A DNA stretch of 17,364 bases. Origin: a virus (lineage: Duplodnaviria; Heunggongvirae; Uroviricota; Caudoviricetes). A program made the position numbers and the translations under genes. The stretch's first letter is position 1; each line of letters begins with the position of its first letter. This document shows positions 1-17,364 of the stretch, piece by piece. The stretch lies in the IMG/VR virus record IMGVR_UViG_2703718840_000006; one strand, written 5' to 3'. The notes under the pieces were generated by a model. That model was not told the DNA's origin. It saw nothing but the letters and a program-made list of their open reading frames with translations, and made no database searches.

Positions 1-897
1 CTATGACTTGCTGTTTTCAGTAAGAGTCTTATCATCCAAAGAATTTATTCTAGAAATTCTTTTTAACTCATTAAGATAATCAACCTCGTTTTCTAAGAAC
101 CAATGAAGAACTTTAGAATTGCCAAGTAATTTATTAATATATGACTGGATTATAACGAATTTCAACATATCTGAACCATACTCGGTTTGAAGCTTTTTCG
201 TTTCTTCCGAAGTTGTTGCCATTTCTTGTTCCAGACGAAGTATGGTTTTTTTTATGTCCTTTTTATAGGGAGTGTTTTTCCCTTTATTTACTATCATCGA
301 TGCCGGTGTTGCATCCAAGATGCTCATTGCAAATTTTTTACTATAATTATCAAAATTAATCATTGTACCGACTGCTTCAATTTGGCGAATTGGCTTCATT
401 TTCCTCAAAACGTCAAATGTAGCCTTAGGTATATGTTTATCAGAAAGTTTCGCAATTACACTTGGATCTATGCCGTTCATCACATTCGCTTTATCTTTTA
501 TGGCATCAACAGATATGCCCAAAGCAGCACTAAGTTTTTCAATTGATACTTTTGCCAGAGACTTAATTATCATTCTATGTTCTTCAACTACATTTATATG
601 ATTCACTTGTTTGTTAGGAGTGAAAGCATCATCTATGCTCGAAAGTATACATGGAGCTTTTTCTATACCTAAGTCTTTTAAAGCCTCAACCCTTAAATGG
701 CCATCAAGTATCTTAGTGACATCTTTATCTTTGTCATAGAATACTATTATTGGTTCAATAATACCTAAGCTTTCGATAGAGGTAACTATTTGATGATATT
801 TATGGCTTCGCTTTACGTTTTCTAATAATTCCTTAGATGGAATTAACTTATTAGTTTCCAGGTAAATAAAATTATCGCCAAAACGTATCTGAATCAT
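1..897 (-). CDS. ParB/Srx-family protein (ParB N-terminal domain plus HTH-like region); distal gene of a tandem ParB-like pair
   Basis: 298-aa ORF with stop at 1-3. ParB-box-like GHLRVEA within IIVFYDKDKDVTKILDGHLRVEALKDLG, then an HTH-like segment (SIEKLSAALGISVDAIKDK). Start overlaps the upstream ORF by 4 nt; AGAGG lies 8 nt upstream of the ATG. No adjacent ParA. Confidence 0.6.
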   Translation of the reverse strand: MIQIRFGDNFIYLETNKLIPSKELLENVKRSHKYHQIVTSIESLGIIEPIIVFYDKDKDVTKILDGHLRVEALKDLGIEKAPCILSSIDDAFTPNKQVNHINVVEEHRMIIKSLAKVSIEKLSAALGISVDAIKDKANVMNGIDPSVIAKLSDKHIPKATFDVLRKMKPIRQIEAVGTMINFDNYSKKFAMSILDATPASMIVNKGKNTPYKKDIKKTILRLEQEMATTSEETKKLQTEYGSDMLKFVIIQSYINKLLGNSKVLHWFLENEVDYLNELKRISRINSLDDKTLTENSKS

Positions 898-1790
898 TTT
901 AATACCTCTTTGTTTACTGGGGTTAATATCTGAGATGGTAGTTCTGAAAGATTCTCTTGTTCAAGTATATGTTGAAAGCTTTTATTCATCATTATGATGT
1001 TAAAAATCTCATTTACTATTAGTAGGTTGGTTTTTATGAATTTTGAGTTGTTATAAACAGATTTATGTTCAGCGATACTATTTTCATAAAGCTCAATCAA
1101 CTCCTCTGCAGTCATCCTTTTTGATGGTTTGTGATAATAAAATCCGGCTGCTTTTGCACCTTTATTCCCAACTGTTCTTTGATTTAGAATGTGTTTTATC
1201 TTTATAATGTCCCGACTTTTTATTAATTTTTTATCATATGCTTCGGTAAGAATATCTTGTGCTTCCTCAGTTTCACATCTTGCAAATTGCACTGCGAGAT
1301 ACAGAGGCAAATTACCCCGTTCGACTGCTGAGAGAAGTTTATGCTCTCCCTTATCAAGTAGCATATTAATACTGCTCACCCAGTTCGATGAATATCCAGT
1401 AATCTCACTTATTTCGGAGTCTGAAAGTCCTCTGATTTTCATGTCTTTAATCACCTGTAATAACTCATTAGAACGTGGTCTTCTCCTTGCAATGTTTTCA
1501 ACTAAACTCATAACGTAAGCATCTTCTTCTGATACATCTCTTATAATTGCTGGAATAATAGTTTCACCTAATGCAACGAGAGCCTCTATTCTCCCTTGAC
1601 CACAAATTAAAGCATATTTGAAATCGCCTTCATCAATAGCTCTTACGCTTATTGGCTTGCTTAATCCTCTTTTTTTTATGCTTTCCTTTATTTCTTCATG
1701 CACTACCTTATTTCTTGTTCGTGGGTTAAGAAATTTTATTTTTGCAATCTCAATTTGAATTATTGGGAATTCATTTTTTTCAGGCAGCAT
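894..1790 (-). CDS. ParB-family protein (ParB N-terminal domain, HTH, C-terminal extension)
   Basis: 298 aa. Motifs GQGRIEALVALG and LVENIARRRP in the N-terminal domain, followed by an HTH-like LSDSEISEITGYSSNWVSSINMLL. GAGGG lies 7 nt upstream of the ATG; overlaps the recombinase stop by 11 nt, suggesting translational coupling. Confidence 0.65.
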   Translation of the reverse strand: MLPEKNEFPIIQIEIAKIKFLNPRTRNKVVHEEIKESIKKRGLSKPISVRAIDEGDFKYALICGQGRIEALVALGETIIPAIIRDVSEEDAYVMSLVENIARRRPRSNELLQVIKDMKIRGLSDSEISEITGYSSNWVSSINMLLDKGEHKLLSAVERGNLPLYLAVQFARCETEEAQDILTEAYDKKLIKSRDIIKIKHILNQRTVGNKGAKAAGFYYHKPSKRMTAEELIELYENSIAEHKSVYNNSKFIKTNLLIVNEIFNIIMMNKSFQHILEQENLSELPSQILTPVNKEVLK

Positions 1791-3336
1791 ATAGTTCCCT
1801 CACTTTCATGCGAGTAATAATTTGTAGAAGTTTATCAAGATTATCAAATCTATAGAGATCTAATCGAATGTTGTTTGTTTCCGTCATGCACATTTTATTA
1901 TATTCGTTTTCAATCTTTGGTATGATATAAAAATCAAGAGGTGAAATATTTTGTGAATTCATTCGTATAACAATTGTTATGTCTGCTTTCTGTGAGTTAT
2001 CAAACCGGACTTTCCATCTAAGTTTACCTGATTTCATATGTATGCATTTAGTAACAAGGACGGAAATTAAAAACTCATCATTGATGTAAAGCATTGGGGC
2101 ATATTTATACTCGTCTATATGACAGTTACTTTTTAAAATTTCACCCTTAAAATCCTCAATTATCTCTGAGTAAAATGATCTTAGTGCTTCATTTATTTTG
2201 AGATAGCTGTAATCATGTTCTGGCTTATAACCAATCAAAGTATATGCTCTTAAAAGACCACCAAATCGGGTTCTATAAACAGAAGATGAAGGGCCTGTAT
2301 CATCTTCATCAATGATAAAGCCTGATAGTTTTCCATTAGATTCTAATTTTTGTTTTAGTTTTTCTAATAGATCTTCATTAGTCAAATGAATGGATCGGAG
2401 CTGAATTATTTCTTGAGCTTTATTGTATTTTTTCTTTGAAATAATAGGTTTATATGCCTTGTCACATCTAACCCATTCATGTTTGGGGTTTTTTACAAGC
2501 CTACTTTTTAATTTAGATGAGGTTTTGTTATATATGTTGTTTCCAATATATTTTTCATTTGTCAAAATTTGATGTATTTTTGCACGAGTCCATAATGTTC
2601 CATTTTCTGCAGGTATGTTCTGTTCATTTAATCTCTCAGCAATAATGAATTCTGGGACGTTATTATCTATAAAGAGATCATATATTCTATTTACAATTTT
2701 TATTTCATTTTTTGGTCCCGGAATTAATATTACCCTATCTGTTTGAATACTCTTTCTTTTGCGGAAACTCAATATTTCTTTAGCTATGCCATTTTCGTCT
2801 ACTAAAAGACGTCTCAGCCCATAACCAGCCATACCGCCTTGATGATAACCAAGCTTTATTAAATTTACTTGCCCTATAAATACCTTTTCAGATAGATTCC
2901 TGCTGTGATATGCAGCACTAGATCTTTTTATATTCAGTATAACAGAGGACTCTAAAGGGAAATCTTTAGTGGGTATAGGTTCGGAACAATATATAAGATC
3001 TACACCATTTCTCTCAAATAGAAAGGAATAATATGCCGCTTCATCACTATTTTGAAAACGACCAAAACGGCTCACATCATAAAATAATACAGCCTGTATA
3101 TCTATTTTCTTTTGTTCTACATCGCTAAGTAACTGCTGCAAAGAATGCCTGCCTACGATACTGACTCCGCTCTTACCTGCATCATCGTAGGTATAAGCGA
3201 TTTCCATATTGTTCTTTTCAGCATAATCTTTGATATATTCGGACTGATTATGTAAAGAATATTGCTGATGGTCGGTAGACATCCTCAAGTACTGCGCGAC
3301 CCTAACTCTATGATTTTTGTCATTTTCGCTAGCCAT
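1780..3336 (-). CDS. Large serine recombinase (resolvase catalytic domain plus recombinase domain, divergent C-terminus)
   Basis: 518 aa. N-terminal YLRMSTDHQ (catalytic Ser context) and DDAGKSG; recombinase-domain-like GYHQGGMAGYGLRR. No clear CxxC zinc ribbon seen in the C-terminal ~200 aa. GAGG lies 9 nt upstream of the ATG at 3336. Confidence 0.75.
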   Translation of the reverse strand: MASENDKNHRVRVAQYLRMSTDHQQYSLHNQSEYIKDYAEKNNMEIAYTYDDAGKSGVSIVGRHSLQQLLSDVEQKKIDIQAVLFYDVSRFGRFQNSDEAAYYSFLFERNGVDLIYCSEPIPTKDFPLESSVILNIKRSSAAYHSRNLSEKVFIGQVNLIKLGYHQGGMAGYGLRRLLVDENGIAKEILSFRKRKSIQTDRVILIPGPKNEIKIVNRIYDLFIDNNVPEFIIAERLNEQNIPAENGTLWTRAKIHQILTNEKYIGNNIYNKTSSKLKSRLVKNPKHEWVRCDKAYKPIISKKKYNKAQEIIQLRSIHLTNEDLLEKLKQKLESNGKLSGFIIDEDDTGPSSSVYRTRFGGLLRAYTLIGYKPEHDYSYLKINEALRSFYSEIIEDFKGEILKSNCHIDEYKYAPMLYINDEFLISVLVTKCIHMKSGKLRWKVRFDNSQKADITIVIRMNSQNISPLDFYIIPKIENEYNKMCMTETNNIRLDLYRFDNLDKLLQIITRMKVRELYAA

Positions 3337-3506
3337 GCACGAAACCTCATGGATGATTCAATACAATGTAGTGGATAAAATTGATCAAATTTCAACCGAA
3401 TTCAACTGTTTTATCATTGATTAGAGCGAATTTGGTAGATCTTCGAGGTGTATGATAATCGAGAAGAGATGTGAATTATTTAGCTGATATGACCGACAGC
3501 TTTCGT

Positions 3507-3556
3507 TATGTGGACTCAATGTCCCCATTTGTAAATGGCTATGCTTAGTCCACATA
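3507..3556. repeat. Nested inverted repeat (10-bp arms TATGTGGACT/AGTCCACATA around an inner CCATTT-GT-AAATGG palindrome)
   Basis: Read directly: perfect 10-bp arms at 3507-3516 and 3547-3556, inner palindrome at 3525-3538. Lies between the integrase stop and the recombinase start. Candidate protein-binding or recombination site; no U-tract, so not a canonical terminator. Confidence 0.4.
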
Positions 3557-3618
3557 GGTTAATGGTGTGATTATTAATTCTTTAACTAAATCAAGATAGT
3601 TAATCCATCATGGGAGAG

Positions 3619-4848
3619 TTATGCGGCAATAACTTTGCATTTTTGAGACGAAACATAGTCACTCCACCATTGCATGAGAACCACCCGTTCAGTGAGATAC
3701 TCTGCACGATTGTAGGCTGCAATTATTTCATCTTTCTTCGAGTGGGCAAGGGCGGCTTCTAAGACATCAGTCCTAAACTTGCCAGACTCCTCAGCAGCCG
3801 TTCTAGCAATGGATCGCATACCGTGAGCTACAAGCTCACCTCCGAAACCCATACGGATTATGGCCGCATTAGCTGTTTGTTCATGCATGTGATTGAGTGG
3901 AGCTTTGATACTGGGGAACACCCACTCTCTATGCCCGCTGATGACTTTCATTAAATCCAAAACTCGCAAAGCTTCTTTGCTCAGTGGAACTTTGTGAGGC
4001 TTCTTCATTTTCATAAACTCCGCCGGGATGTTCCACATGCCAGTTTCAATATCAATATCTGACCATCTTGTGCGAACAGCTTCACCTGGGCGAACCCATG
4101 TGAGAAGTTGCCACTCAATCAGTAGCCTTGTTTCCAAACGGATAGAAGCATTGTTTAGAGCAACCAAGAAGCGAGGGAGTTCGGAAGGGGGTAATGCTGG
4201 CATATTCTGTTTTTTTGGCTTGCTGAACCGTTGCCCCAGGTTGTCTGCCGGGTTGAATTCTATGAGTTCTTCTGTTGCTGCATAGCGGAAAATTTCATTC
4301 AGGCGGGATATGATGCGGCGAAGTGTTTCAAGGACACCTCGTTTTTCTATGGGTTCTAAATGCTGTTTAAGCATTTTAGGGCGAATCTCCTTAATTGGGG
4401 TATCACCCAATGTGGAAAAGATATTTCTCTCTAGGCTTCGCCAGATGTCGTTAGCATGATCTTGGGAGATGCCTGACGTTTTGACTTTCTCATCAAGCCA
4501 CTTCTTGGCTACTGCTTGAAATGTATGTTCCGTGGCATCTTTCAGTGCATTGGCTTTTTGGTTGTTATGAACTTGGGGGTCTATACCATTTGTAAGCAAC
4601 GACAAGTATTCATCACGTAAAGCTCGTGCCTTCGCAAGTGTAAGGTGAGGATAGGTTCCTAAGCTCACCTTAGTTCGCTTTTTGGTCACAGGCACTGCAT
4701 ATCTGAAATACCAATTTTTCTTCCCTCCCTTCGCCAGGGGAGCGATTCGCAACAGCAAACCATCGCCGTCAAAAAGGTTAACCTCTTTTTCGGCAGGTTT
4801 GGTGCTTTTGATTTCAGTGTCAGTGAGCTTCTTAGCGATTTTGGCCAT
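3619..4848 (-). CDS. P4-type tyrosine integrase (arm-binding N-terminal domain plus catalytic domain)
   Basis: Start chosen at the internal ATG (4846-4848, MAKIAKKLTDTEIK) with GAGGG upstream; the track ORF extends to 4929 with a non-canonical start. N-terminal KLTDTEIKSTKP...LFDGDGLLL...WYFRY is typical of P4-like integrases; C-terminal HGMRS and AAYNRAEY supply the HxxR and catalytic Tyr. Lies immediately downstream of the ssrA 3' fragment, same orientation. Confidence 0.85.
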   Translation of the reverse strand: MAKIAKKLTDTEIKSTKPAEKEVNLFDGDGLLLRIAPLAKGGKKNWYFRYAVPVTKKRTKVSLGTYPHLTLAKARALRDEYLSLLTNGIDPQVHNNQKANALKDATEHTFQAVAKKWLDEKVKTSGISQDHANDIWRSLERNIFSTLGDTPIKEIRPKMLKQHLEPIEKRGVLETLRRIISRLNEIFRYAATEELIEFNPADNLGQRFSKPKKQNMPALPPSELPRFLVALNNASIRLETRLLIEWQLLTWVRPGEAVRTRWSDIDIETGMWNIPAEFMKMKKPHKVPLSKEALRVLDLMKVISGHREWVFPSIKAPLNHMHEQTANAAIIRMGFGGELVAHGMRSIARTAAEESGKFRTDVLEAALAHSKKDEIIAAYNRAEYLTERVVLMQWWSDYVSSQKCKVIAA

Positions 4849-5014
4849 GTTTGGGACCCTCGATTTTAGGACCCATCTTCGTGGGTCCCATTCAGGGTGC
4901 CATAACTCGTAGTTCTCAGCAATTCTCACTAGACTACAATAGACGTAAAAAAGCCCGCAGAGCTTGTGCTGTGCGGGCTTAGTAGACTTTACTGAACTTC
5001 AGTACATCAATATT

Positions 5015-5047
5015 TGGTGGAGCTGGCGGGAGTTGAACCCGAGTCCG
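5015..5047 (-). ncRNA. ssrA: 3'-terminal fragment of tmRNA gene ssrA (T-arm, acceptor 3' strand, CCA); integration-site core copy, not a full gene
   Basis: Minus-strand read CGGACTCGGGTTCAACTCCCGCCAGCTCCACCA matches my recollection of the E. coli tmRNA 3' end (GGGTTCAACTCCCGCCAGCTCCACCA). The adjacent upstream sequence is AT-rich and unrelated to tmRNA, and would overlap the methyltransferase CDS, so only the terminal ~33 nt are present. Confidence 0.75.
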
Positions 5048-5119
5048 TATTTTTATAATTAGCTGAAATAAAACGATTAATACTAACCATTTTATTCTGC
5101 GGATCTTTTGCGGCTCCTT

Positions 5120-6019
5120 TTATGTCTGGATGTGGTCGTCAACACATCCTCTTTTAAATATAGGCGCTTTTACCTTAGTTGGATCATCTGTTTTAAAGAT
5201 TTTCAATCGTTCACTGAAGAACATTACCTCAGATCCTTTGTACCGATCTTGAGCACTGTAGTTTATTCCATATACTAATGATGATGTCTTATACATAGCT
5301 TGGATCTCAGGAGTGTTATCGTAAGAAACAATCCAAGGCGTTTTAATATTATTCTGTACGACTTTTGCAACCCTAACATGATCATCATGATCATAATGGT
5401 TGATATATAAACCTTTACCTTTTATGTAATAAGGTGGATCCAAATATGTTAATGAGTTTTGTGGCAATTGAATAACTATTTTTTTTATGAAATCAATTGC
5501 ATCCATGTTATATAAATCTATTCTGTGACGATTTTCTGATATTTTATGGATTCGAGAAATCAAATCACTCTTATTATAGCGAGCGTCAAGCTTCCATTTC
5601 CCTTCTTGATTTTTACCGCCAATTACACCACCTTTTAATATTCCAGAACGATTTGTTCTATTGAGAAAAAAGGTTGAGAAACCAATTGTTAAAAGATCAT
5701 GGTCTTTAGGATTATTAATTATATCTTTCTGCCTAAACCATTCATCCATTGTAACTTCTGTTCTTTCAATTAAAGAACATAATTGATCTGCATGATTTAA
5801 TACACTGTGCCAAAAAGCATAAACAGAAATATTAATATCATTAAGGATGATTTTTTCAGCTGCATTTAGATGTAACAGTTTCAATGCTAAACCAGCACCC
5901 CCAGCATATGGTTCGGCATAATGTATAGGCGAAAGATTATTTTCTTCAATAATCCGAAGCATGAAATTTGCAAGCTTGCCTTTACCGCCAGGATAGCGAA
6001 GTGGGGTGTTAAAACGCAT
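5120..6019 (-). CDS. Dam-family (D12 class) N6-adenine DNA methyltransferase
   Basis: 299 aa. Motifs in Dam order: LRYPGGKGK, YAEPYAGGAGLA (AdoMet-binding), FFLNRTNRSG, YLDPPYY (catalytic DPPY). GAGG lies 6 nt upstream of the ATG at 6019. Target sequence cannot be read from sequence. Confidence 0.85.
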   Translation of the reverse strand: MRFNTPLRYPGGKGKLANFMLRIIEENNLSPIHYAEPYAGGAGLALKLLHLNAAEKIILNDINISVYAFWHSVLNHADQLCSLIERTEVTMDEWFRQKDIINNPKDHDLLTIGFSTFFLNRTNRSGILKGGVIGGKNQEGKWKLDARYNKSDLISRIHKISENRHRIDLYNMDAIDFIKKIVIQLPQNSLTYLDPPYYIKGKGLYINHYDHDDHVRVAKVVQNNIKTPWIVSYDNTPEIQAMYKTSSLVYGINYSAQDRYKGSEVMFFSERLKIFKTDDPTKVKAPIFKRGCVDDHIQT

Positions 6020-6053
6020 ATGATACCTCTAAATGTCAGATCTAAAGTATATC

Positions 6054-6092
6054 AAAAAAAGGGCTTTATGGCCATCACATAAAACCCTTTTT
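6054..6092. terminator. Bidirectional intrinsic-terminator-like hairpin between the ATPase and methyltransferase genes
   Basis: A7 (6054-6060), stem GGGCTTTATG / CATAAAACCC (one mismatch) with 7-nt loop (6061-6087), then T5 (6088-6092). On the minus strand the hairpin is followed by a U7 run. Confidence 0.45.
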
Positions 6093-6098
6093 AATCAA

Positions 6099-7832: not shown

Positions 7833-7890
7833 GTTTGTATCTTGCTCCGTAAAATGGCCACAAATTGTGGCCAATAGTTTCATGCTTGGA

Positions 7891-9224: not shown

Positions 9225-9283
9225 ATGTTTCTCCACTTAGCCCGCTGCACACGGGCAGTAATATCAAATTCCAGTCCTGATAA

Positions 9284-9499: not shown

Positions 9500-9858
9500 T
9501 TCTTAGTCTCTGGTGCTTTCGGCATTACTGCCCAGTGAGTGATATTGACGTTTTCAAGGTCCCCGACCTGAAATGTCCACTGCCATTCTCCGGTTTCTTT
9601 TTGTCCCCAGGTGTACCAGAGAGAACGCCAGCCAATCAGCCAGCCTTCTCCGTTAGCATCAAATAACAGAACACTTTCATTTGCTGGAGGCAGTTCAGCT
9701 GACACTGGTATTATTTTGCTTTCCAGTGCCGCACATTTAGCTTCAAGCGCGTCGAATTTACGTACCAGGTACTCAGCATTTGTTTCGTTCACTTTCAGAT
9801 CTCGCGGTACACATTTCCCGCGAAGAAACCCTTCCATTTCGAAAACATTCATGCGCAT
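9496..9858 (-). CDS. DUF551-like phage protein (YfdS-like by size and synteny)
   Basis: 120 aa; Trp-rich C-terminus (GWLIGWRSLWYTWG...ITHWAVMP) resembling DUF551. Same size and operon position as E. coli yfdS, from memory. Confidence 0.5.
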   Translation of the reverse strand: MRMNVFEMEGFLRGKCVPRDLKVNETNAEYLVRKFDALEAKCAALESKIIPVSAELPPANESVLLFDANGEGWLIGWRSLWYTWGQKETGEWQWTFQVGDLENVNITHWAVMPKAPETKK

Positions 9859-10385
9859 TTGCGTAATTCCGATAATTCGTTAAAGCGTTTCATAAACATC
9901 CCGTAGGCATGGCCTGGAGCCAGTGGAATAACTTTGAACATCTCTGTTGCCGGGATACCTTCCAGTACAGGCCAGAAAGAGCCATCATCAAGCCCGAGAT
10001 CGCGGCGTTCGGTTGCCAGCATGATGAGATCGGCATATTTCACGGGCGTGCTCATAACCGGGGGTAACCCGTATTTCTCACGGATGACGACGTCTATTTT
10101 TTCTTCCATCCGTTTATAGTCAGGAAGAAGTCGTTTCAGTGGTGCGGGGATGTCCTGGCAATACGCTTCTGTTGCATCATGCATTAACGCTTCAAAAGCA
10201 AATTCCTGCGGCACCAGCTGGCTGCAAAGCACTGCATGCTGGGCGACACTGTAGAAGTGTGAAAGATGTCCTGCAAAGCGACAGATATTTGAAAGGGAAA
10301 CCGCGATATCGTTAATCACGATGTCGTCTTTATTTATCTTGTCATAATAAAAATGCTTCCCGGAAAAAGTTTTAATAAATGACAT
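9849..10385 (-). CDS. HD-domain phosphohydrolase (YfbR/YfdR-like 5'-deoxynucleotidase family)
   Basis: HD motifs (SHFYSVAQHAVL; LMHDATEAY). Start placed at ATG 10385 (MSFIK; GGAG 7 nt upstream), giving 178 aa, the size I recall for YfdR; the track ORF starts 9 codons earlier. Confidence 0.75.
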   Translation of the reverse strand: MSFIKTFSGKHFYYDKINKDDIVINDIAVSLSNICRFAGHLSHFYSVAQHAVLCSQLVPQEFAFEALMHDATEAYCQDIPAPLKRLLPDYKRMEEKIDVVIREKYGLPPVMSTPVKYADLIMLATERRDLGLDDGSFWPVLEGIPATEMFKVIPLAPGHAYGMFMKRFNELSELRKCA

Positions 10386-10512
10386 TTTGTTCTCCACGTA
10401 TATGCGCTGCACCGCGCTGAATTTTGGTTAAAGAAAACCCTCGCCATCAGGCGATTATTGAGTCAATTATGTTTCCATAAATGCCCCCGCAGGGGCATTT
10501 GCAGTAAGGAAA

Positions 10513-11337
10513 TCAGGCGGTAAAAGTACCAATAAAGGTTTCTACTTTGCTGTCTTTGAATTTCTCAACAAGCAGATCACGAAATTCGTTAGCCATTTCT
10601 TCCTGCACTGCTTCCAGCTGAATAATGCGCAGAACCAGTACCGGACGATCGCCAGTGATAATGCTGAGGCGTAATTTAAACGGACGTTCTTTCAGGCCTT
10701 CAAACGGAACGCATTTAAATTCAAATGCCACTGGCATAATGTCTTTGGTCTTCGCTTCGACAGATTCCATCAGGGAGCGTTTGCCGCTGAAGTCATTATC
10801 TTCAAAATCAGCGGTCTGGTTTGCTTCAATCGTGATTTTACGGACTGCCGCAGCCGCTTTTGTTGCCTGAATGGCGTCACCATTAGCATCAAAGCCCACA
10901 AGGTAGTCGGCCCAGTCTTCAATCCATTCTGCCAGTGACTTCTGGGAGTTACGCTCGCCGTTAACAGACAACAGGGCAGAGAACGGTGCTGTCTTTTTCA
11001 GTTTGAGAGTGGCAGTGTTATCTGCGTGACCTGGCTCATCAATAGTACCCAGGTTAAGCACACTGACGGCACGCATATTATCGGCATCGATAAAGCAGCG
11101 GGTGCCTTCATCTGCAAGATCTTTAGAATAACGGGTAAAGTCATCGATGCTGGCAGTGGAAAGCGCACCACGGAAACGGAAACGATTTAAATTAAATTTT
11201 TCCAGATCATGAATGCGGAAATTCTCAGGCAATGCCACAGCATCGGCACCAATCTTACTGATAATTTCATTAACACCCTGAGCAGAAATAAGGGCATGGA
11301 TTTGATTAATTGCGGTTGCGTCTAAGTTCTGAGACAT
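10513..11337 (-). CDS. DUF2303-like phage protein (YfdQ-like by size and synteny)
   Basis: 274-aa ORF, the size I recall for E. coli YfdQ, in the same operon order. No catalytic motif recognised. Confidence 0.6.
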
Positions 11338-11402
11338 AATAAGTCCTCACTATATAAAGATATTCAGTGATGAGATAAATAATCAGTTTATTAAGTATGA
11401 TA

Positions 11403-11765
11403 TTAACGACCTGCTGCGCGGAGTTTTCCGTCAGGTTCACCGGCAAGAGTCAGTAATTGTCCCTGGTCTTCCTGCAGAATAGTCAGGCGACCACCGCGAT
11501 TGACATACATCGGCGTTTCGGTGGTGTCTTCTTCGGAAATTTTCCCGCGGTTAGTCGGGCGAACATATGAGAGTTTGTGTTTGATTTTCACACGGTTCTC
11601 ATCAAATGGTTCGATTTCCAGGTTGAGTGAGACCTTACCTTTGGTTTTCGTGTTCATCACACCGGAAGCGACTTCACTGAGAACTGCGCCGATTTTTGTT
11701 TCAAATACGCCGCCGTCCAGCTCCCCGATAAATGCCTGCACATCAGTACTGCGTTCGCTAGCCAT
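11403..11765 (-). CDS. Hypothetical early-left phage protein (YfdP-like by size and synteny)
   Basis: Start set at the internal ATG (MASERSTDVQAF) with AGGAGC 7 nt upstream, giving 121 aa. The 197-aa track ORF has a Cys/Arg-rich N-terminal extension that overlaps the leader and looks non-genic. Confidence 0.55.
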   Translation of the reverse strand: MASERSTDVQAFIGELDGGVFETKIGAVLSEVASGVMNTKTKGKVSLNLEIEPFDENRVKIKHKLSYVRPTNRGKISEEDTTETPMYVNRGGRLTILQEDQGQLLTLAGEPDGKLRAAGR

Positions 11766-12373
11766 TTTGTTGCTCCTCATCATATCGACCCTGCAAGGCC
11801 GATTAGTTTCTCCACAAAACAGAGAAGAACACCTGCGGTGGCAGCCGCCCGGATGGATTGGGTTATGAGCCCGTCGTCCGGTGATGCTCTTCTCTGTTTT
11901 GTAAAAAGAGCGGTACCAGCCGGAAGCAAGTGTACAAACTGGTACCGCCAAAGCAGTGGCTGTTGTGGTGGGGTTGTCACTCAGGCGTATGGTCAACCTG
12001 ACAATCCGGTGTCCTCAACGGGGAAAGAGTAACCCCGCCATACTTACCGCCGCGCCATTTCGCGGATGACCACAACGCTGAGAGCACTTAGCCAGTTACG
12101 GCACCACACTTTGTCGCGGCTCCATAAATGCCCTCATCGTTGCACCCTGGTCTCTTCCCAGGCGTCAAACCGGATCGCCACGCTGGTTAGGCGTCTTATC
12201 AGCATCATCATTGACTTGCACATTCCGGCTACCTGGTTTGTTTGCCCTAGCAAGGAGTGGATTGTCCCCTTTAACGTCCCCAGACCGCTAACGACGCATG
12301 TGCCATACGCCGTGTTACAACCAAATTTTGTTAGTACCTTGTTTGTTGGTCTGGAAAGAAAGATAAAATGAAA

Positions 12374-12411
12374 TTGCGCGTTGTGCAAGTGCTTTGTTGC
12401 GGGATATGCAA
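12374..12411. promoter_or_regulatory. Candidate OL operators: two 15-bp TTGC-N7-GCAA sites, with probable leftward pL
   Basis: TTGCGCGTTGTGCAA (12374-12388) and TTGCGGGATATGCAA (12397-12411); the first is nearly identical to an OR site (TTGCGCGTTAAGCAA, 13180-13194). Just downstream of the cI terminator, as in lambdoid immunity regions. Confidence 0.45.
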
Positions 12412-12428
12412 TTTAATGGGTAATGAAA

Positions 12429-12446
12429 AGCCACCTTCGGGTGGCT
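12429..12446 (-). terminator. Intrinsic terminator downstream of cI
   Basis: Perfect 7-bp stem AGCCACC/GGTGGCT with TTCG tetraloop; on the minus strand it is followed by UUUUCAUU. Located 20 nt after the cI stop. Confidence 0.5.
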
Positions 12447-12466
12447 AATTGATGAGGAGGTAAGGG

Positions 12467-13159
12467 TTAATTGTGTCGCTTAAGGGTTTGTGACTGGCTG
12501 ATTAAGACCTTTCCAAAGACCATAAACCGGTGTTCATTTTCGCTGGTAATTCCCCATTCACGGTAAATCTGGTTATCAGAAATCACCAGTAGTTTGTCAG
12601 GTATCATTTGCAGTCGTTTGACATAAATTTTATCATCAAAACCAAATACATAGATACCATCTCCATCAAACTGATTGATACTGACATCAACGAAGATGAG
12701 ATCTCCTGGCTCAATGGTTGGACACATACTGTCCCCACGAACGTTGATAACTTTAATGTGATTGGCTGGTCGTCCGCCAAACATCGATACAGCATTATCA
12801 GTTCTGTATTCAATGGCATGAATCACATCAATGACATCACCGCCCTGGATAAGGCCATTTCCCGCACTGGCACTGACATCCAGCATTTCAATACGGAATA
12901 CATCCTTCACCTGCGCAACATCCTCACTAATACTGTTTTTACATACAGTATTACTTTTGAAGTCTGAGGTAAAGAGATCAGCAATATCAACACCTAAGCT
13001 CCTGGCAATATTACTCAGGGCTTGTTCAGTGAATTGTTTCTGCTTACCTGTTTCCAGGCGTGAGATATTCGCCGCATCCACTCCTATTGCTTCAGCGAGA
13101 TCGGCGATTTTCATGTTCTTCGCCTGGCGAAGTTGTCTGACTCGATTTCCTATGTTCAT
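12467..13159 (-). CDS. cI: CI-like phage repressor (HTH_XRE N-terminal domain plus S24 LexA-like autopeptidase domain)
   Basis: 230 aa. N-terminal HTH (IADLAEAIGVDAANISRLETGKQ); C-terminal S24 signature GDSMCPTI (Ser nucleophile) and downstream VKR (Lys). Divergent from a cro-like gene across an operator-rich 97-bp intergenic region. Confidence 0.9.
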   Translation of the reverse strand: MNIGNRVRQLRQAKNMKIADLAEAIGVDAANISRLETGKQKQFTEQALSNIARSLGVDIADLFTSDFKSNTVCKNSISEDVAQVKDVFRIEMLDVSASAGNGLIQGGDVIDVIHAIEYRTDNAVSMFGGRPANHIKVINVRGDSMCPTIEPGDLIFVDVSINQFDGDGIYVFGFDDKIYVKRLQMIPDKLLVISDNQIYREWGITSENEHRFMVFGKVLISQSQTLKRHN

Positions 13160-13256
13160 GCGTTTATTACATTTCTTTATTGCGCGTTAAGCAAATCAAC
13201 TTGCGCAAAATAGTTGCGTGAAATAATATGCTTATCACGCAATATGTGGAGGTTAT
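13160..13256. promoter_or_regulatory. OR-like divergent promoter/operator region between cI and cro
   Basis: TTGC-N7-GCAA site at 13180-13194, degenerate copy ATGCTTATCACGCAA at 13228-13242, palindrome TTGCGCAA at 13201-13208, inverted TTGCGTGA/TCACGCAA arms. Candidate pR: -35 TTGCGC (13201-13206), 17-bp spacer, -10 TAATAT (13224-13229). GGAGG RBS at 13248-13252 before the cro ATG. Confidence 0.55.
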
Positions 13257-13394
13257 ATGCAATCACCATTACGGAATGTGCGTAAAGCGCACGGATTTAC
13301 TTTGCAGCATGTTGCTGCGGGCGTTCAGGTCAATCCAGCGACGCTGAGTCGTATTGAAAGACAGGAACAAATTCCATCTACCGTCCATGAATGA
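13257..13394 (+). CDS. cro: Cro-like HTH protein, C-terminally truncated by a deletion junction
   Basis: 45-aa ORF not in the supplied track (too short). HTH_XRE-like segment FTLQHVAAGVQVNPATLSRIERQEQ. The ORF ends abruptly where lambda-G-like sequence begins. Confidence 0.55.
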   Translation: MQSPLRNVRKAHGFTLQHVAAGVQVNPATLSRIERQEQIPSTVHE

Positions 13395-13581
13395 AGCCGT
13401 TAAACAGATTGAGCAGGAAGTGCTTACCACCTGGCCCACGGAGGCAATTTCTCATGCTGAAAACGTGGTGTACCGGCTGTCTGGTATGTATGAGTTTGTG
13501 GTGAATGATGCCCCTGAACAGGCAGAGGACGCCGGGCCTGCAGAGCCTGTTTCTGCGGGAAAGTGTTCGACGGTGAGCTGA
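13387..13581 (+). pseudogene. G: Remnant of tail assembly chaperone G (C-terminal part only), fused to the truncated cro region
   Basis: Translation PSMNEAVKQIEQEVLTTWPTEAISHAENVVYRLSGMYEFVV...PVSAGKCSTVS matches my recollection of the lambda gpG C-terminus. ATG at 13387 overlaps the cro stop (ATGAATGA); no SD. N-terminal half of G is absent. Confidence 0.6.
13557..13563 (+). other. Programmed -1 frameshift slippery heptamer G GGA AAG (G-T frameshift site)
   Basis: GGGAAAG in the lambda X XXY YYZ register relative to the G-fragment frame (GCG GGA AAG). The downstream T-like ORF is in the -1 frame and overlaps by 19 nt. Confidence 0.6.
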
Positions 13582-13997
13582 GTTTTGCCCTGAAACTGGC
13601 GCGCGAGATGGGGCGACCCGACTGGCGTGCCATGCTTGCCGGGATGTCATCCACGGAGTATGCCGACTGGCACCGCTTTTACAGTACCCATTATTTTCAT
13701 GATGTTCTGCTGGATATGCACTTTTCCGGGCTGACGTACACCGTGCTCAGCCTGTTTTTCAGCGATCCGGATATGCATCCGCTGGATTTCAGTCTGCTGA
13801 ACCGGCGCGAGGCTGACGAAGAGCCTGAAGATGATGTGCTGATGCAGAAAGCGGCAGGGCTTGCCGGAGGCGTTCGTTTTGGCCCGGACGGGAATGAAGT
13901 TATCCCCGCTTCCCCGGATGTGGCGGACATGACGGAGGATGACGTAATGCTGATGACAGTATCAGAAGGGATCGCAGGAGGAGTCCGGTATGGCTGA
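13563..13997 (+). CDS. T: T portion of the tail assembly chaperone G-T frameshift product
   Basis: ORF in the -1 frame relative to the G fragment with no ATG of its own (track start is GTG). Sequence (FDGELSFALKLAREMGRPDWRAMLAGMSSTEYADW...GVRYG) matches my recollection of lambda gpT. Its stop overlaps an ATG GCT GAA CCG GTA (MAEPV) H-like start. Confidence 0.6.
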   Translation: MFDGELSFALKLAREMGRPDWRAMLAGMSSTEYADWHRFYSTHYFHDVLLDMHFSGLTYTVLSLFFSDPDMHPLDFSLLNRREADEEPEDDVLMQKAAGLAGGVRFGPDGNEVIPASPDVADMTEDDVMLMTVSEGIAGGVRYG

Positions 13998-14031
13998 ACC
14001 GGTACCCGGTGGTAATGGCTGCAGGGGCTGA
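13990..14031 (+). pseudogene. H: Five-codon remnant of the tape-measure gene H start (MAEPV) followed by out-of-context sequence and a stop
   Basis: ATG overlapping the T stop encodes MAEPV (lambda H begins MAEPVGDL in my recollection), then PGGNGCRG and a stop. Implies a deletion junction near 14005. Confidence 0.4.
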
Positions 14032-14239
14032 CTCAGGGCAGTGGGACGTTATGACATGGAGTGATGCTGATAATCAGCAGGTGAAACTGTCGATGACGGA
14101 ACTGGAGGAGCTGGCTGCAGCTATGGCGCAGGCGCAGGTTGATCGCAATAATGAGATTTATCGTCATCAGCGTGAAATGAAAGAGGAACTGAGCAATCTC
14201 CTGGATTTGAAGCAGGTTAGGGAGTTCAGTCCAGAATAA
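14009..14239 (+). CDS. Hypothetical ORF or gene fragment in the tail-fibre region (no ATG start, possibly a remnant)
   Basis: 76-aa track ORF with a non-ATG start, downstream of the H deletion junction. Helical-looking sequence with no recognised motif. May be the 3' end of a deleted gene. Confidence 0.3.
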   Translation: MVMAAGADSGQWDVMTWSDADNQQVKLSMTELEELAAAMAQAQVDRNNEIYRHQREMKEELSNLLDLKQVREFSPE

Positions 14240-14332
14240 GAAAAAACGTAGTACATCGTATTCAAGAGGATCTATGCTGGCATCGTAGCTGTTTTTAAAC
14301 AGTAAGTAGCCGTTGAAGGTCACAGGGGAAAA

Positions 14333-14695
14333 ATGCTCTTTGACTTGGCTTCCGGGGACGCACTATTTATCTCTGAACCAGGCCCATTAGCGGAAAATGT
14401 CACCTGGTTGTCGCCGGAAGGGGAATATCAGAAGTGGAACGGTACAGCCTGGGTGAAAGATGCAGAAGCAGAAAAACTATTCCGGATCCGGGAGGCGGAA
14501 GAAACAAAAAACAGCCTGATGCAGGTAGCCAGTGAGCATATAGCGCCGCTTCAGGATGCTGTAGATCTGGAGATCGCAACGGAGGAAGAAAATTCGTTGC
14601 TGGAAGCCTGGAAAAAGTATCGGGTGTTGCTGAACCGTGTTGATACATCAACTGCACCTGATATTGAGTGGCCGATAATTCCTGTAACATCATAG
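14333..14695 (+). CDS. tfa: Tail fibre assembly protein (lambda Tfa family, short form)
   Basis: 120 aa; ATG with AGGGGA upstream. Sequence [14 protein letters not shown]...[19 protein letters not shown]...[25 protein letters not shown] closely matches my recollection of the lambda Tfa C-terminal two-thirds. Confidence 0.8.
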
Positions 14696-14712
14696 TCATT
14701 ATTTATTTGTTT

Positions 14713-14743
14713 TGCTGACATGTTGTATACGACAACGTGTCAG
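14713..14743. terminator. 13-bp inverted repeat hairpin between convergent tfa and the HEPN gene (possible bidirectional terminator)
   Basis: GCTGACATGTTGT / ACAACGTGTCAGC arms (one G-T position) with a 5-nt loop. Flanking U-tracts are weak on both strands. Confidence 0.35.
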
Positions 14744-14807
14744 CAGTTTGACTGGTATTATAACGAATATATTGTAATGTTTTCTGGTGTTATTAATTGT
14801 TGTTTTA

Positions 14808-15761
14808 TTACCATATATCTATGGGTTTTGTTTTCTGCTCATCTAAACAAAATGCACAGATGTAAGCCCCCTTACTTCGGTTGTACTGAACCGTTTCTAA
14901 AGCAGAGTCAAGATGTTTACTATCAAAGTTCCAGCTTTTTTCCATAACAGAAACACATTTTCTGCAATAGAAACTTTCTTTTGAGTTAGTATCTCCTGAA
15001 TCATTTTTAGTGTAGCCAAAGAATTTTTTTGCTGATTCCTTTGAACATGCGGAAATGGCTGCAGTGAACTCATAATGAGTTTGAAGCATAGCCCATACAA
15101 TACCTGAAAATTCTTCATCCTCGTCTTCATCTAATCCTATATTAATGCCGCCAGAGGAATGTATTGCTTTATATTTATACCTATGCCATATCCAGTGTGC
15201 TGATTCAGTATTTAGATAGTTGTGAGCACGTACAACTGATGTGAAAATTAGCTCTGGCATTATATCTGTTTTTTTATCAACCGTATGCATAAAACGATTT
15301 CTTAGAATGCGCATACTATTAAACCAAGTAATAAAGTCATCAGGCAGTGATTTAGAGGCGAAAGTATTATATACTTTAATTAAATCTTGGGCGTCTAATG
15401 TGTGGAAGTCTGAAAATGAAATGTTACCTTCACTATCAGGTTTAGGTGTATTGCGAGTTGCATTCGTGATAAGTAGATAAGGTGATATTTCGACGATAAG
15501 TCCTTTTAGTCTGAATTCAATGGATTGAAGTATCAAATTAAAAGATGTAATCAATTTGGGTCTAGCAAATAACCAATAATGCTCTAAATTTTTAATATCT
15601 GATTCTGTATAGAATTCAGACGTTTTACAATAACTATTCCAAAGGTTTATATCTCTGTAATCATAAGCTAAATCGGCAATTTTTTCCCAAGCCTCATTTA
15701 CCATGTGGTCAGCCATTGTATAAAAATCAGTCTTTGTTGGAATGTCAGTTATCATTATCAA
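14808..15761 (-). CDS. HEPN-motif protein, Abi_2 (AbiD/AbiF)-like, with C-terminal CxxC...CxxC zinc ribbon
   Basis: 317 aa, AT-rich. Mid-protein ILRNRFMH matches the HEPN Rx4H motif and the Abi_2 RN..AH context. C-terminal CRKC-(28 aa)-CAFC. Own AT-rich upstream region. Confidence 0.5.
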   Translation of the reverse strand: MIMITDIPTKTDFYTMADHMVNEAWEKIADLAYDYRDINLWNSYCKTSEFYTESDIKNLEHYWLFARPKLITSFNLILQSIEFRLKGLIVEISPYLLITNATRNTPKPDSEGNISFSDFHTLDAQDLIKVYNTFASKSLPDDFITWFNSMRILRNRFMHTVDKKTDIMPELIFTSVVRAHNYLNTESAHWIWHRYKYKAIHSSGGINIGLDEDEDEEFSGIVWAMLQTHYEFTAAISACSKESAKKFFGYTKNDSGDTNSKESFYCRKCVSVMEKSWNFDSKHLDSALETVQYNRSKGAYICAFCLDEQKTKPIDIW

Positions 15762-15992
15762 TCTACCTTTGGGTCTTTATTGTTGTCTATCAAGATATAA
15801 TATTCAGGCTGGAGTGGCTAATGTTGATCTACTTATTTTCTCCCGGTAAGTCAGTTTATCGCGATATAAGCCGCATTTGATTTTGGCGACTATGGTCGTG
15901 TTAGGTATGTATCTGGCGTGTTACTGCGCCAGATTAAATATAAACCAATAATATTAAAGGGTGTTACTCTCTTGACAGATTTAGGGAACAAA

Positions 15993-16187
15993 TCACTCGT
16001 CAGCTGACTCCCAAGTATCTTTCAGAGTTTCCTGAACAAAAGTTTTAGCTGAATCTTTATCGGCGGTGCGCCTAACAGAAAAACCATCGTTGCTGGTGGC
16101 TTTTACGATCATCTCCACATCGTCATAATGCTCGCCAATGTATTGGGTTAATTCTTCCTTTAATGCGTCTACAGCGCCGTTTGGCAT
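15993..16187 (-). CDS. DinI-family protein (short form)
   Basis: 64 aa. [13 protein letters not shown] and the C-terminal TWESADE match the DinI pattern (AIDALAGEL...ETWESADDWF, from memory). In-frame stop 7 codons upstream excludes a longer form. Two LexA boxes upstream. Confidence 0.75.
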
Positions 16188-16241
16188 TTGGTCATTTTGT
16201 CTTTGGCTATGGAGATCTCAATACGCATAACATTTCTTTTG

Positions 16242-16289
16242 TACTGCGTTTGTAGACAGTATTATTCTTATCTGTGTAAATAAACAGTA
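16242..16289 (-). promoter_or_regulatory. Two LexA (SOS) boxes overlapping the dinI-like promoter
   Basis: TACTGCGTTTGTAGACAGTA (16242-16261; CTGC-N8-ACAG, one mismatch) and CTGT-N8-ACAG (CTGTGTAAATAAACAG, 16272-16287). On the minus strand a TTGATA -35-like hexamer sits directly upstream of the second box. 55-100 bp upstream of the start codon. Confidence 0.55.
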
Positions 16290-16470
16290 TCAAGACTTCG
16301 TTTTAGCTGCATAAGAAAAAAGAGATGGATACATTCGGAAAGATTTTGATGGTGGTAGGTTAAGTGAATAGCCTAAAGGTGTTTTACCCCAATTATTCCC
16401 CGGTATTTCTCCGCATAAAAAACAATCATAAAAACAACAGCCATAATAGGCTGGTTCTTAAGGGATTTTT

Positions 16471-16510
16471 GGTCCACGAGAGAATTTGAACCTCCGACCC
16501 CCGACACCCC
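16471..16510 (-). other. tRNA-like 3' fragment (T-arm plus acceptor 3' strand, no encoded CCA); possible attachment-site or mobile-element junction remnant
   Basis: Minus-strand read GGGGTGTCGGGGGTCGGAGGTTCAAATTCTCTCGTGGACC: T-loop TTCAAAT flanked by a 5-bp stem with two G-U pairs, then 7-nt acceptor strand plus discriminator. No complementary 5' acceptor strand upstream, and no match to any E. coli tRNA I can recall. Confidence 0.25.
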
Positions 16511-16531
16511 ATAATGGTGTAATTAATCAGG

Positions 16532-16900
16532 TTAAATATTTAGCAGATCCTCTACAATATCATTAAACCCAGATGCCTGTTTAGATACAGAATTGAATAA
16601 GTCTCTAAGTGCTTGTGTTTGCTCAAAAGTTTCCCAAAGTGTTTTATAACTTGGCGTTACAATTGCTAATACTAAGCCTTCCGCCCATGACCATTCATGT
16701 TCATCAAAATAGTAGCGATATTTTCTGCTGTATATAACAAAATCCTTTTCCTTATATTTAGCATGAAACACAACTTGAATTATATCCTGTGTACCATTAA
16801 CAAGGTTTTCAGGCGCATCAATTGCCATCCAATTTATCATTTTTTGGACAGTTAACTTATTTAATGAAACAATTAGCTTTGTGGTTTTATCGTTATGCAT
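16532..16900 (-). CDS. Hypothetical protein, second gene of a coupled two-gene operon
   Basis: 122-aa ORF; ATG 2 nt after the stop of the upstream ORF. AT-rich. No recognisable motif. Confidence 0.5.
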   Translation of the reverse strand: MHNDKTTKLIVSLNKLTVQKMINWMAIDAPENLVNGTQDIIQVVFHAKYKEKDFVIYSRKYRYYFDEHEWSWAEGLVLAIVTPSYKTLWETFEQTQALRDLFNSVSKQASGFNDIVEDLLNI

Positions 16901-16902
16901 AA

Positions 16903-17364
16903 TTAGTCCAGTTGCATATCTTTCACAATTTCGTTAACTCTTGAGTTGAGTATACTCAACTTCTCATAGAGCTTCCAGGCTTGGTCTTGGTCATTGATAT
17001 TAATGGAGATTTCTTTTCTTCGAAAGATTCCTTTGGGTTTGACTTCATCAAAAAATATATCAATCTTTGAGCGTTCCTTGGTTGGAAGCCTGCTGAAAAG
17101 GCTTTCAGTTAGCACTGCACACTCAGTAAACTCCTTACGTATAAATTCTTTCTGAGTAACCCAGTCTCCAATAGCATCATTTATCAATGAGGCTTTTTTT
17201 TGAAGATTGCTATGGATTTCAGGTATTCGAACCTTGTTTCTGAGAGTGGCCTTCAATGAACGCGTCGTAAAAAAAAGTTTTACAGTTACAACAAAACCGA
17301 CAATACCCGCTAGGGAGGATATGTCAGTTACCGTCTGTGATAGGGGCCAAGTCAGGATATCCAT
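16903..17364 (-). CDS. Hypothetical membrane-anchored protein (N-terminal TM helix); 5' end at the window edge, may be partial
   Basis: 153-aa ORF whose ATG is the last three bases of the window. Hydrophobic segment ISSLAGIVGFVVTVKLFF near the N-terminus, then a charged soluble domain. Confidence 0.45.
   Translation of the reverse strand: MDILTWPLSQTVTDISSLAGIVGFVVTVKLFFTTRSLKATLRNKVRIPEIHSNLQKKASLINDAIGDWVTQKEFIRKEFTECAVLTESLFSRLPTKERSKIDIFFDEVKPKGIFRRKEISININDQDQAWKLYEKLSILNSRVNEIVKDMQLD

Follow-up and report, generated by a model that had tools for sequence, protein, structure and literature searches.

Two mobile elements, very probably stacked in tandem, in a tailed-phage record from the Escherichia coli tmRNA locus

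The IMG/VR record IMGVR_UViG_2703718840_000006 (Caudoviricetes; 17,364 nucleotides, hereafter the window, analysed over its whole length) alternates between adenine-thymine (AT)-rich blocks and blocks of more balanced guanine-cytosine (GC) content. Very probably, the window represents a stack of two mobile elements at the transfer-messenger RNA (tmRNA) gene ssrA of Escherichia coli, one being a small integrative island and the other a decayed lambda-like prophage. A first-pass annotation, made from the letters alone, had read the blocks as several independent acquisitions layered onto integrase and prophage backbones. The stacking of horizontally acquired modules is retained here, with the number of events probably reduced to two integrations of pre-assembled mosaics.

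In the proposed course of events, the island (1-5014), a P4-type tyrosine integrase joined to a fixed AT-rich recombinase-ParB-ParB module, would have occupied ssrA first. The second element, a defective lambdoid prophage spanning 5047-17364 plus about 180 bp past the window, would later have entered the same ssrA 3' end, displacing the island and leaving a 32-nt ssrA scar at 5015-5046. The AT-rich stretches of the prophage would represent accessory genes at two classic cargo positions flanking its phage attachment site (attP), and the stretches of 45-47% GC would be the integrases and the lambdoid backbone. The modules would have been built by recombination within the pool of mobile elements; the chromosome would then, most likely, have gained two finished mosaics by two site-specific integrations, with deletions following. 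The AT offset would be a lasting property of such cargo in any host rather than the signature of one low-GC donor.

Tandem elements at the tmRNA gene

By megablast against 5,426 complete E. coli genomes, to which the genome counts below refer, the window was mapped to the ssrA-smpB locus. In strain UK_Dog_Liverpool, an intact tmRNA gene and smpB start 182 nt past the window's last base, and a type I restriction-modification (RM) system precedes the window DNA on the glaH side; NZ_CP031653 has the window DNA followed by ssrA-smpB and preceded, on the glaH side, by a type I RM system. Within the window, tRNA/tmRNA and Rfam scans detected no intact tRNA or tmRNA gene, the sole Rfam match being IS009. 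The window does hold a scar of the ssrA 3' end (minus strand, GGACTCGGGTTCAACTCCCGCCAGCTCCACCA; coordinates of all features are given in Table 1) between the two elements. The hairpin adjoining this scar downstream is a terminator supplied by the island behind ssrA; on the other side lies an arm of the prophage attachment (att) site, compared over window positions 5014-5121 with positions 4301-4408 of the CFT073 prophage locus (L006).

The prophage is flanked by the scar on one side and by intact ssrA on the other. A direct repeat of the target end holds for this element: its 27-nt core equals the ssrA end, and this core recurs, with a single mismatch, in the attP of a circular relative. For the island, the distal repeat lies outside the window and was not found. 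The P4-type integrase is located 167 nt from the scar in the window and adjoins intact ssrA in BL21.

The ssrA site is differently occupied in related genomes. BL21(DE3) carries the island only, in the order ssrA-int-recombinase-ParB-ParB-IS1-glaH and without prophage; in CFT073, ssrA is occupied by a prophage of the window's family, without the island; in NCCP15734, the same prophage, with its ATPase-methyltransferase cassette, sits beside a different, true P4 satellite with another integrase and a Hachiman system; and in GN4143 a 90%-identical cassette adjoins another P4-type integrase. Because of these configurations, the island (1-5014) and the prophage (5047 onward) are regarded as independent. 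The comparison with genomes lacking the blocks, proposed in the first-pass annotation, thus found the two elements separately, and the cassette replaced by other AT-rich genes.

At tRNA-type genes, the element adjoining the intact gene is, as a rule, the latest arrival. Since the prophage adjoins intact ssrA, it most likely arrived after the island.

Some observations weigh against this reconstruction. None of the complete genomes matches the whole window; in the best of them, strain 410, the interval corresponding to 12332-14311 measures about 15 kb instead of about 2 kb, which leaves the deletion history approximate. The far end of the island, which lies beyond the window, was not located; both the order of integration and the number of host-level events, two, are themselves inferred; and the step in divergence between the integrase and the recombinase-ParB genes, described below, could reflect unequal substitution rates and not recombination.

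At most 76% of the window is covered by any one complete genome, as might be expected if the contrast between blocks were a chance fluctuation, or if unrelated contigs had been joined in a chimeric assembly. The probability of either is considered negligible. A five-block test of GC homogeneity gave a chi-square of 303 (p = 2.5e-64), and the change points between blocks brought likelihood gains of 30-84 nats. Moreover, two complete chromosomes share positions 1-13389 in colinear order (98.5% over 13.4 kb), and in one of these two the same locus is also colinear with 14311-17364, at 98.8%; the differences amount to a deletion inside the prophage.

Base composition and module borders

The three blocks described by eye as AT-rich (1-3400, 5050-7880 and 14700-17364) have GC contents of 32.8%, 33.1% and 35.9% (the last computed over 14701-17364), against 44.8% for 3401-5049 and 47.0% for 7890-14700; the whole window has 40.0%. 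The sliding GC and codon-usage check suggested at that stage was run, and the blocks separate by GC, by GC at third codon positions (GC3) and by codon bias. GC3 is 25-28% in the recombinase, both ParB genes, the methyltransferase, the ATPase and the hypothetical genes hyp317 and hyp122, and 40-63% in both integrases and the prophage genes, a contrast sharper than that of total GC. Pooled codon bias, calculated against 25 flanking BL21 core genes, is 0.62 for recombinase-ParB, 0.44 for the P4-type integrase, 0.65 for methyltransferase-ATPase, 0.28 for the prophage backbone and 0.56 for the right-hand genes.

The balanced blocks had been likened to both phage and core DNA, and only the former likeness is borne out. 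At 45-47% GC they look like phage rather than core DNA, the complete related phage having 49.4% and the local core a mean of 51.7% (BL21 flank). Neither the balanced nor the AT-rich blocks are uniform: across 500-bp windows, 7890-14700 spans 41% to 57% GC, and the right-hand block varies from gene to gene (Table 1).

Borders were placed by fitting one maximum-likelihood change point per pair of neighbouring blocks, with support intervals of 2 log-likelihood units. The first falls at 3605 (3586-3685), the nearest feature being the stop of the P4-type integrase at 3619; the border earlier set at 3400 is therefore real and lies about 200 nt further right, the spacer at 3337-3618 being AT-rich too. 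The remaining three, at 5048 (5030-5066), 7943 (7897-7980) and 14675 (14586-14702), lie nearest to the ssrA-like scar (5015-5046), the stop of the second integrase (7891) and the tfa stop (14695), in agreement with the earlier placement of borders at the scar, at an integrase stop and at the hairpin between tfa and hyp317. This hairpin (14713-14745; -23.7 kcal/mol, z = -5.4) is located between the convergent tfa and hyp317 genes.

Other signals in the window gave little in addition. Promoter-like sites numbered 44 against 47.4 expected from shuffles, with no excess, and terminator-like sites numbered 18 against 13.4 expected, not above shuffles, so only individual hairpins were used. A repeat search of the window detected no long direct or inverted repeats flanking any block and no ends of insertion sequences or transposons beside the cassette. 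Of the AT-rich blocks, one is fixed backbone and another freely exchanged cargo, as detailed below, so the GC contrast marks module borders and can neither count nor date acquisitions.

Table 1. Features of the window, with strand, GC content and the basis of each assignment
Feature	Position	Strand	GC	Basis or remark
ParB_N + RepB-C protein 1, 298 aa	1-897	-	32.3% (GC3 28%)	Pfam RepB 2.7e-24, ParB_N 1e-05
ParB_N + RepB-C protein 2, 298 aa	894-1790	-	33.7%	Pfam ParB_N 1.6e-13, RepB 8.5e-08; NCBIfam parB_part
Large serine recombinase, 518 aa	1780-3336	-	32.7%	Pfam Resolvase and Recombinase, each about 1e-22
AT-rich spacer	3337-3618		35.1%	Holds change point 3605 and the divergence step
P4-type tyrosine integrase, 409 aa by annotated start	3619-4848	-	45.8%	Pfam Arm-DNA-bind_3, Phage_int_M, Phage_integrase; NCBIfam NF007246 (3.3e-133)
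GC-rich hairpin and T-run, adjoining scar downstream	4951-4981	-		-20.4 kcal/mol, z = -5.2
ssrA 3'-end scar	5015-5046	-		31/32 nt identical to tmRNA end; 27 nt perfect (5015-5041)
Prophage att arm beside core	5047-5119		AT-rich	About 75% similar to CFT073 prophage arm
D12-class (Dam-like) N6-adenine DNA methyltransferase, cassette gene 2	5120-6019	-	33.3%	Pfam MethyltransfD12 1.8e-19
OLD-family ABC-ATPase and Toprim nuclease-like protein, 577 aa, cassette gene 1	6099-7832	-	33.0%	Pfam AAA_15, AAA_21
Second tyrosine integrase, Arm-DNA-bind_2 type, 388 aa	7891-9057	-	44.5%	Pfam
Small gene overlapping integrase start, excisionase position	9018-9224	-		Relatives: hypothetical protein WP_001331174
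Early-left genes: 71-aa hypothetical, DUF551, YfdR (5'-deoxynucleotidase), YfdQ (DUF2303), YfdP	9284-11765	-	46-50%	Pfam; RefSeq annotation of relatives
CI-like repressor	12467-13159	-		Pfam Peptidase_S24 6.5e-19, helix-turn-helix (HTH) families
Cro-like gene, cut after 133 nt	13257-13389	+		Left edge of large internal deletion
Tail-gene fragments: minor tail protein T (13563-13997), DUF4376 fibre end (14009-14239)	13390-14310	+	Up to 57%, highest of window	Pfam
tfa, 3' two-thirds	14311-14695	+		Pfam Caudo_TAP 2.1e-42; nt 201-585 of full gene
hyp317, 315 aa	14808-15755	-	33.8%	Invariant R-N-x3-H and two CxxC pairs (HEPN-like motif and zinc ribbon)
dinI-like gene	15993-16228	-	44.6%	100% identical to L002 copy annotated as frameshifted pseudogene
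proL (tRNA-Pro)-type att site, fossil	16428-16519	-		3' about 52 nt of tRNA-Pro(GGG)-like sequence and about 40 nt of proL downstream sequence
hyp122, 122 aa, next to attP	16532-16900	-	32.5%	Hypothetical
hyp153, 153 aa, last gene before intact ssrA (about 180 bp beyond)	16903-17364	-	39.0%	Hypothetical

Fixed backbone, exchangeable cargo and the prophage remnant

The recombinase and the two ParB genes had been counted among the foreign cargo layered onto the locus, an assignment that does not survive comparison between genomes. As judged from their distribution, they appear to form a fixed backbone that travels with the P4-type integrase and holds no swappable cargo. The recombinase-ParB block occurs in 655 genomes (nearly complete in 620) and the island's integrase allele, at no less than 90% identity, in about 643, the junction between integrase and recombinase being unbroken in 626. 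H223, a candidate for the integrase allele without the recombinase, was rejected, an IS2 being inserted between the two genes. Recombinase proteins that are 96-100% identical are found in Klebsiella, Enterobacter, Salmonella, Citrobacter and Cronobacter; inspection of the first three genera showed the order (smpB-)ssrA-int-recombinase-ParB-ParB to recur in each with identical spacing. The int-recombinase-ParB-ParB unit measures 5.84 kb, with 97-98% DNA identity across E. coli, Klebsiella, Enterobacter and Salmonella. Since the block is co-inherited with the integrase across genera, composition alone misclassifies it.

In these four genera alike, the unit ends at one shared nucleotide, about 795 bp left of window position 1, in the sequence TTCTTTTCTAACCGAAGGGAAGAAAAG with a short 7-bp inverted repeat (L001:14206, L003:5206, L019:13130 and L020:13162). 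Past this end lie a type I RM system, a type ISP RM system, a UvrA-like ATPase with two ThiF proteins (Klebsiella, Enterobacter) or HNH_5/DUF5677/DUF6602 genes (Salmonella). The unit end could be a site-specific cargo junction, perhaps one for the serine recombinase. Compared with the copies of Klebsiella, Enterobacter, Salmonella and SH21PTE31, the window is 98.8-99.5% identical in the recombinase-ParB part, about 96% (95.9%) in the spacer and P4-type integrase, and about 84% in the part upstream of the integrase that includes the att site; the step falls at the compositional boundary. This pattern is consistent with an older recombination that joined an integrase module to a recombinase-ParB module.

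The ATPase-methyltransferase pair, also described as foreign cargo, does appear from its distribution to be swappable, at a hotspot between the second integrase and the att site. It occurs in 85 genomes, always as a single chromosomal copy, that is, in about a fifth of the approximately 412 that carry the adjacent integrase. In cassette-less genomes, homology begins 15-55 nt inside the 3' end of the integrase (7906-7946), at the GC change point, these last nucleotides being exchanged along with the cargo. At the other edge, homology stops exactly at the att core (5045/5046), and the arm of about 75 nt is weakly conserved. Three other gene sets occupy the same interval: one 780-bp gene in VTB96816v (31.7% GC), two genes in CFT073 (37.0%), and a ParA-family gene with two hypothetical genes in the circular phage record NZ_CP148393 (32.1%). 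The integrases beside this alternative cargo have 44-45% GC.

Homologues of the ATPase, with 50-88% identity, are found in Enterobacterales, Vibrionaceae, Pseudomonas and Halomonas, and the D12 methylase was the next gene in every context examined. The pair also takes up other prophage positions, beside cI in P. aeruginosa, in the holin-Q interval in Y. enterocolitica and after int in the Citrobacter phage phiNP. In every host examined, the cassette lies 9-18 GC points under its flanks: 47.5% vs 59-64% in P. aeruginosa, and 33% vs 42-49% or 34% vs 45-52% in Enterobacterales. As the offset persists in every host, P. aeruginosa included, the AT-richness of the cassette does not point to a single low-GC donor.

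The right-hand genes had likewise been read as accessory cargo, and a complete relative places them as such. NZ_CP148393.1 (L008, 44,611 bp, labelled plasmid pZ1323HEC0010-3) is circular, has a complete lambdoid phage gene content and order, and probably represents not a plasmid but a prophage, excised or replicating, whose assembly closed into a circle. Its order is int - cargo - attP core - hyp153 - hyp122 - dinI - hyp317 - tfa - stf - lom - J, which identifies the right-hand genes as accessory genes of a phage, located between its attP and its tail-fibre genes. The whole right-hand block is present in 13 of the 5,426 genomes, and its hyp122-hyp153 part likewise in 13.

This block is composite, a fossil proL site splitting it in two. 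In every E. coli genome, the proL (tRNA-Pro GGG) region matches positions 16428-16519 at 84-92%; this segment has a 2-nt deletion in the acceptor strand and a hairpin at 16438-16453, and is also present in L008. In strain 2020N21-246, the tfa-hyp317-dinI segment ends in a real tRNA-Pro beside yejM, and homology with the window ends 52 nt into the tRNA, at 16519. The segment is a fossil att site left by an ancestor that integrated at proL. It lies about 1 kb from the ssrA-type attP now in use, and indicates that a proL-specific integration module was replaced by an ssrA-specific one.

Under a different history, the integrase and prophage backbones would have been resident first, and the three AT-rich pieces inserted separately from low-GC donors. 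The differences of 12-20 points in GC and GC3, with sharp boundaries, would suit such insertions, as would the restriction of the cassette to about a fifth of the genomes with the prophage integrase and of the complete right-hand genes to 13 genomes. The distribution of the pieces nevertheless makes this course of events very unlikely: recombinase-ParB invariably accompanies the integrase, also in its moves from genus to genus; free or complete phages (phiNP and NZ_CP148393) already have the cassette and the right-hand genes so placed, which means that these arrive with the phage; and the GC of the cassette tracks that of its host (47.5% in Pseudomonas, 33-34% in Enterobacterales), unlike what one recent low-GC donor would leave.

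The prophage itself keeps the lambda gene order in truncated form (int, xis-like gene, yfdRQP, cI, partial cro, tail T fragment, tfa), the full order being seen in L002 and L008. About 12.3 kb are left, compared with 44.6 kb in the complete relative, and the replication, Q, lysis, head and most tail genes are absent. Homology to the fuller prophages L001 and L002 stops at 13389 and restarts at 14311, in a tfa gene that is without its first 200 nt; the tail protein T and DUF4376 fragments in between derive from a different lambdoid tail region. A full-length Rfam IS009 match (14454-14652, 220 bits) lies wholly inside the tfa coding sequence and is probably conserved prophage coding DNA rather than an independent small RNA gene.

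Phage mEp460 and PhiR40_1-type phages share 97% identity with the prophage from about 9450 to 13380. The int-xis module (7891-9450), in which the small gene at the integrase start is taken as a putative excisionase gene (xis) from its position only, is lacking in these mEp460/PhiR40_1-type phages, which have the neighbouring early-left and immunity genes in common with the prophage; therefore, the integration module is itself an exchangeable unit.

AT-richness may also be a general bias of accessory and defence genes, arising through mutation, selection for H-NS silencing or relaxed codon adaptation, each element then being one unit. The constant offset of the cassette under flanks spanning 42% to 64% GC, the AT-richness of all four cargo sets of the int-att interval, and the stable co-inheritance of the AT-rich recombinase-ParB module with its integrase all speak for such a bias. 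As an account of the window it is possible, if rather unlikely, given the replacement of cargo between 5046 and about 7940, the fossil proL att site at 16519/16520, the mEp460-type phages that lack int-xis and yet share its neighbouring genes, and the divergence step at the int/recombinase spacer. General compositional bias probably explains why cargo stays AT-rich and is not a complete account; the two stacked mosaics remain the preferred reading.

Predicted functions and relation to known systems

The methylase matches the PADLOC model PD-Lambda-5_B (PDLC04018) at 6.3e-124 over positions 1-283/291. The best PADLOC matches of the ATPase are partial, to PtuA, AriA and GajA at 3.8e-20 or weaker, and PD-Lambda-5_A is not among the best 25 PADLOC hits. 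Over its full length, the ATPase matches phrog_3940 (1.8e-200), a family without an assigned function there. Its AlphaFold2 model has a predicted local distance difference test (pLDDT) value of 89.5, and the best full-length Foldseek matches are the Thermus OLD nuclease 6p74 (1.1e-11) and GajA (3e-11), with template-modelling scores (TM-scores) of about 0.3 that leave the domain arrangement uncertain. Among 30 homologues, the Walker A (GKNGTSKST) and Walker B (LLIDEADAGL) motifs are invariant or nearly so; E357/D358 and D411-x-D413 are invariant and fit a Toprim active site. Because a sequence search against solved structures matched the ATPase at the P-loop and signature regions only, the Toprim assignment needed the structure model. 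The cassette would most likely encode an OLD-type ATP-dependent nuclease acting on invading DNA, together with a methylase marking host and prophage DNA.

For hyp317, a HEPN identity is plausible and unproven. Its R152-N153-x3-H157 motif is invariant in 32 homologues, and its AlphaFold2 model (pLDDT 88.7) is all-helical to residue 246. No Pfam, NCBIfam, PADLOC or PHROG match was obtained, and in the fold search the best PDB match had E = 0.09, HEPN proteins (7bxo_F, Csm6) appearing only at E > 2. The family is spread over Enterobacterales, Acinetobacter, Pseudomonas, Vibrio and cyanobacteria.

The tmRNA gene is a documented hotspot for mixed prophages, satellites and islands (Williams, 2003, 'Traffic at the tmRNA gene'; hotspot number 9 in Hochhauser et al., 2023, PMC10121019). 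The tandem elements known from this gene share with the window integration at the ssrA 3' end by different integrase families, stacking, and a displaced partial ssrA copy in between; nothing essential differs, the elements here being an int-recombinase-ParB island and an mEp460-like defective prophage. CP4-57 and P4-like satellites at ssrA resemble the island in having a P4-type integrase that adjoins ssrA and is transcribed away from it. They differ in core genes, in place of which the island has the serine recombinase and two ParB-like genes: none of psu, delta/ogr, sid, the alpha primase-helicase and cnr/epsilon was detected in the window or in the left flank of L001, L002 or BL21, and such genes are present in the unrelated satellite of NCCP15734. 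When recombinase-ParB was considered as a known defence system, PADLOC gave no match except that of the ParB_N domain to a methyltransferase model, and the candidate was rejected. No description of an ssrA island with a serine recombinase and ParB was found in the part of the literature covered.

The accessory genes of the prophage resemble lambdoid morons and prophage defence hotspots (Vassallo et al., 2022, PMC9519451), which are AT-rich, located at fixed places by att and downstream of the tail-fibre genes, and swapped between similar prophages. The P2 old/tin and P4 hotspots (Rousset et al., 2022), as far as described where cited in PMC10568477, have a different position, the cargo here lying between int and attP in a lambdoid phage that integrates at ssrA.

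PD-lambda-5, a two-gene prophage system of a ParB/HEPN protein and a methyltransferase, has been validated by experiment; it is called a compacted RM and abortive infection (RM+Abi) system, and its cloning required an mrr-deleted host (PMC9519451). The cassette shares with it a full-length component B methyltransferase match, the two-gene arrangement and the prophage location, and differs in the ParB/HEPN component A, in place of which stands an AAA_15/AAA_21 ATPase with a Toprim-like C-terminus. With OLD nucleases (P2 Old, T. scotoductus OLD 6P74 and Gabija GajA) the cassette's ATPase is predicted to share the N-terminal ABC ATPase, the C-terminal Toprim domain and the invariant acidic residues. 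Four OLD classes have been distinguished, as single genes, with a UvrD-like helicase, with a retron, or split into AriA/AriB, and none is methylase-associated (PMC10568477); the constant neighbour of the window's ATPase, in contrast, is a Dam-like methylase. No description of an OLD-methyltransferase system was found in the literature, the coverage of which was incomplete.

A broader proposal concerns two components, the cassette and the island backbone. The OLD/Toprim protein and its Dam-like methylase may form a distinct, widespread, prophage-borne, restriction-like defence system, in which a cognate adenine methylase would protect self DNA, outside the four OLD classes and with an effector unlike that of PD-lambda-5; at the same time, int-recombinase-ParB-ParB may be the backbone of a family of ssrA islands crossing enterobacterial genera, the recombinase loading or exchanging defence cargo at the junction about 0.8 kb beyond the ParB genes. 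Taken as a whole, this proposal is speculative and more probably wrong than right.

The window DNA is found in hundreds of sequenced E. coli, including BL21(DE3), 042 and CFT073, and a mosaic at the tmRNA locus is ordinary, already documented biology. The practical value of the analysis is a map that delimits the modules through the scar, the cargo hotspot and the fossil proL site. Experiments might be worthwhile only on the OLD-methylase cassette and on the island backbone of recombinase and ParB genes; if the proposal on both were true, they would be two so far undescribed components, an OLD-methylase system and a recombinase-ParB island family.

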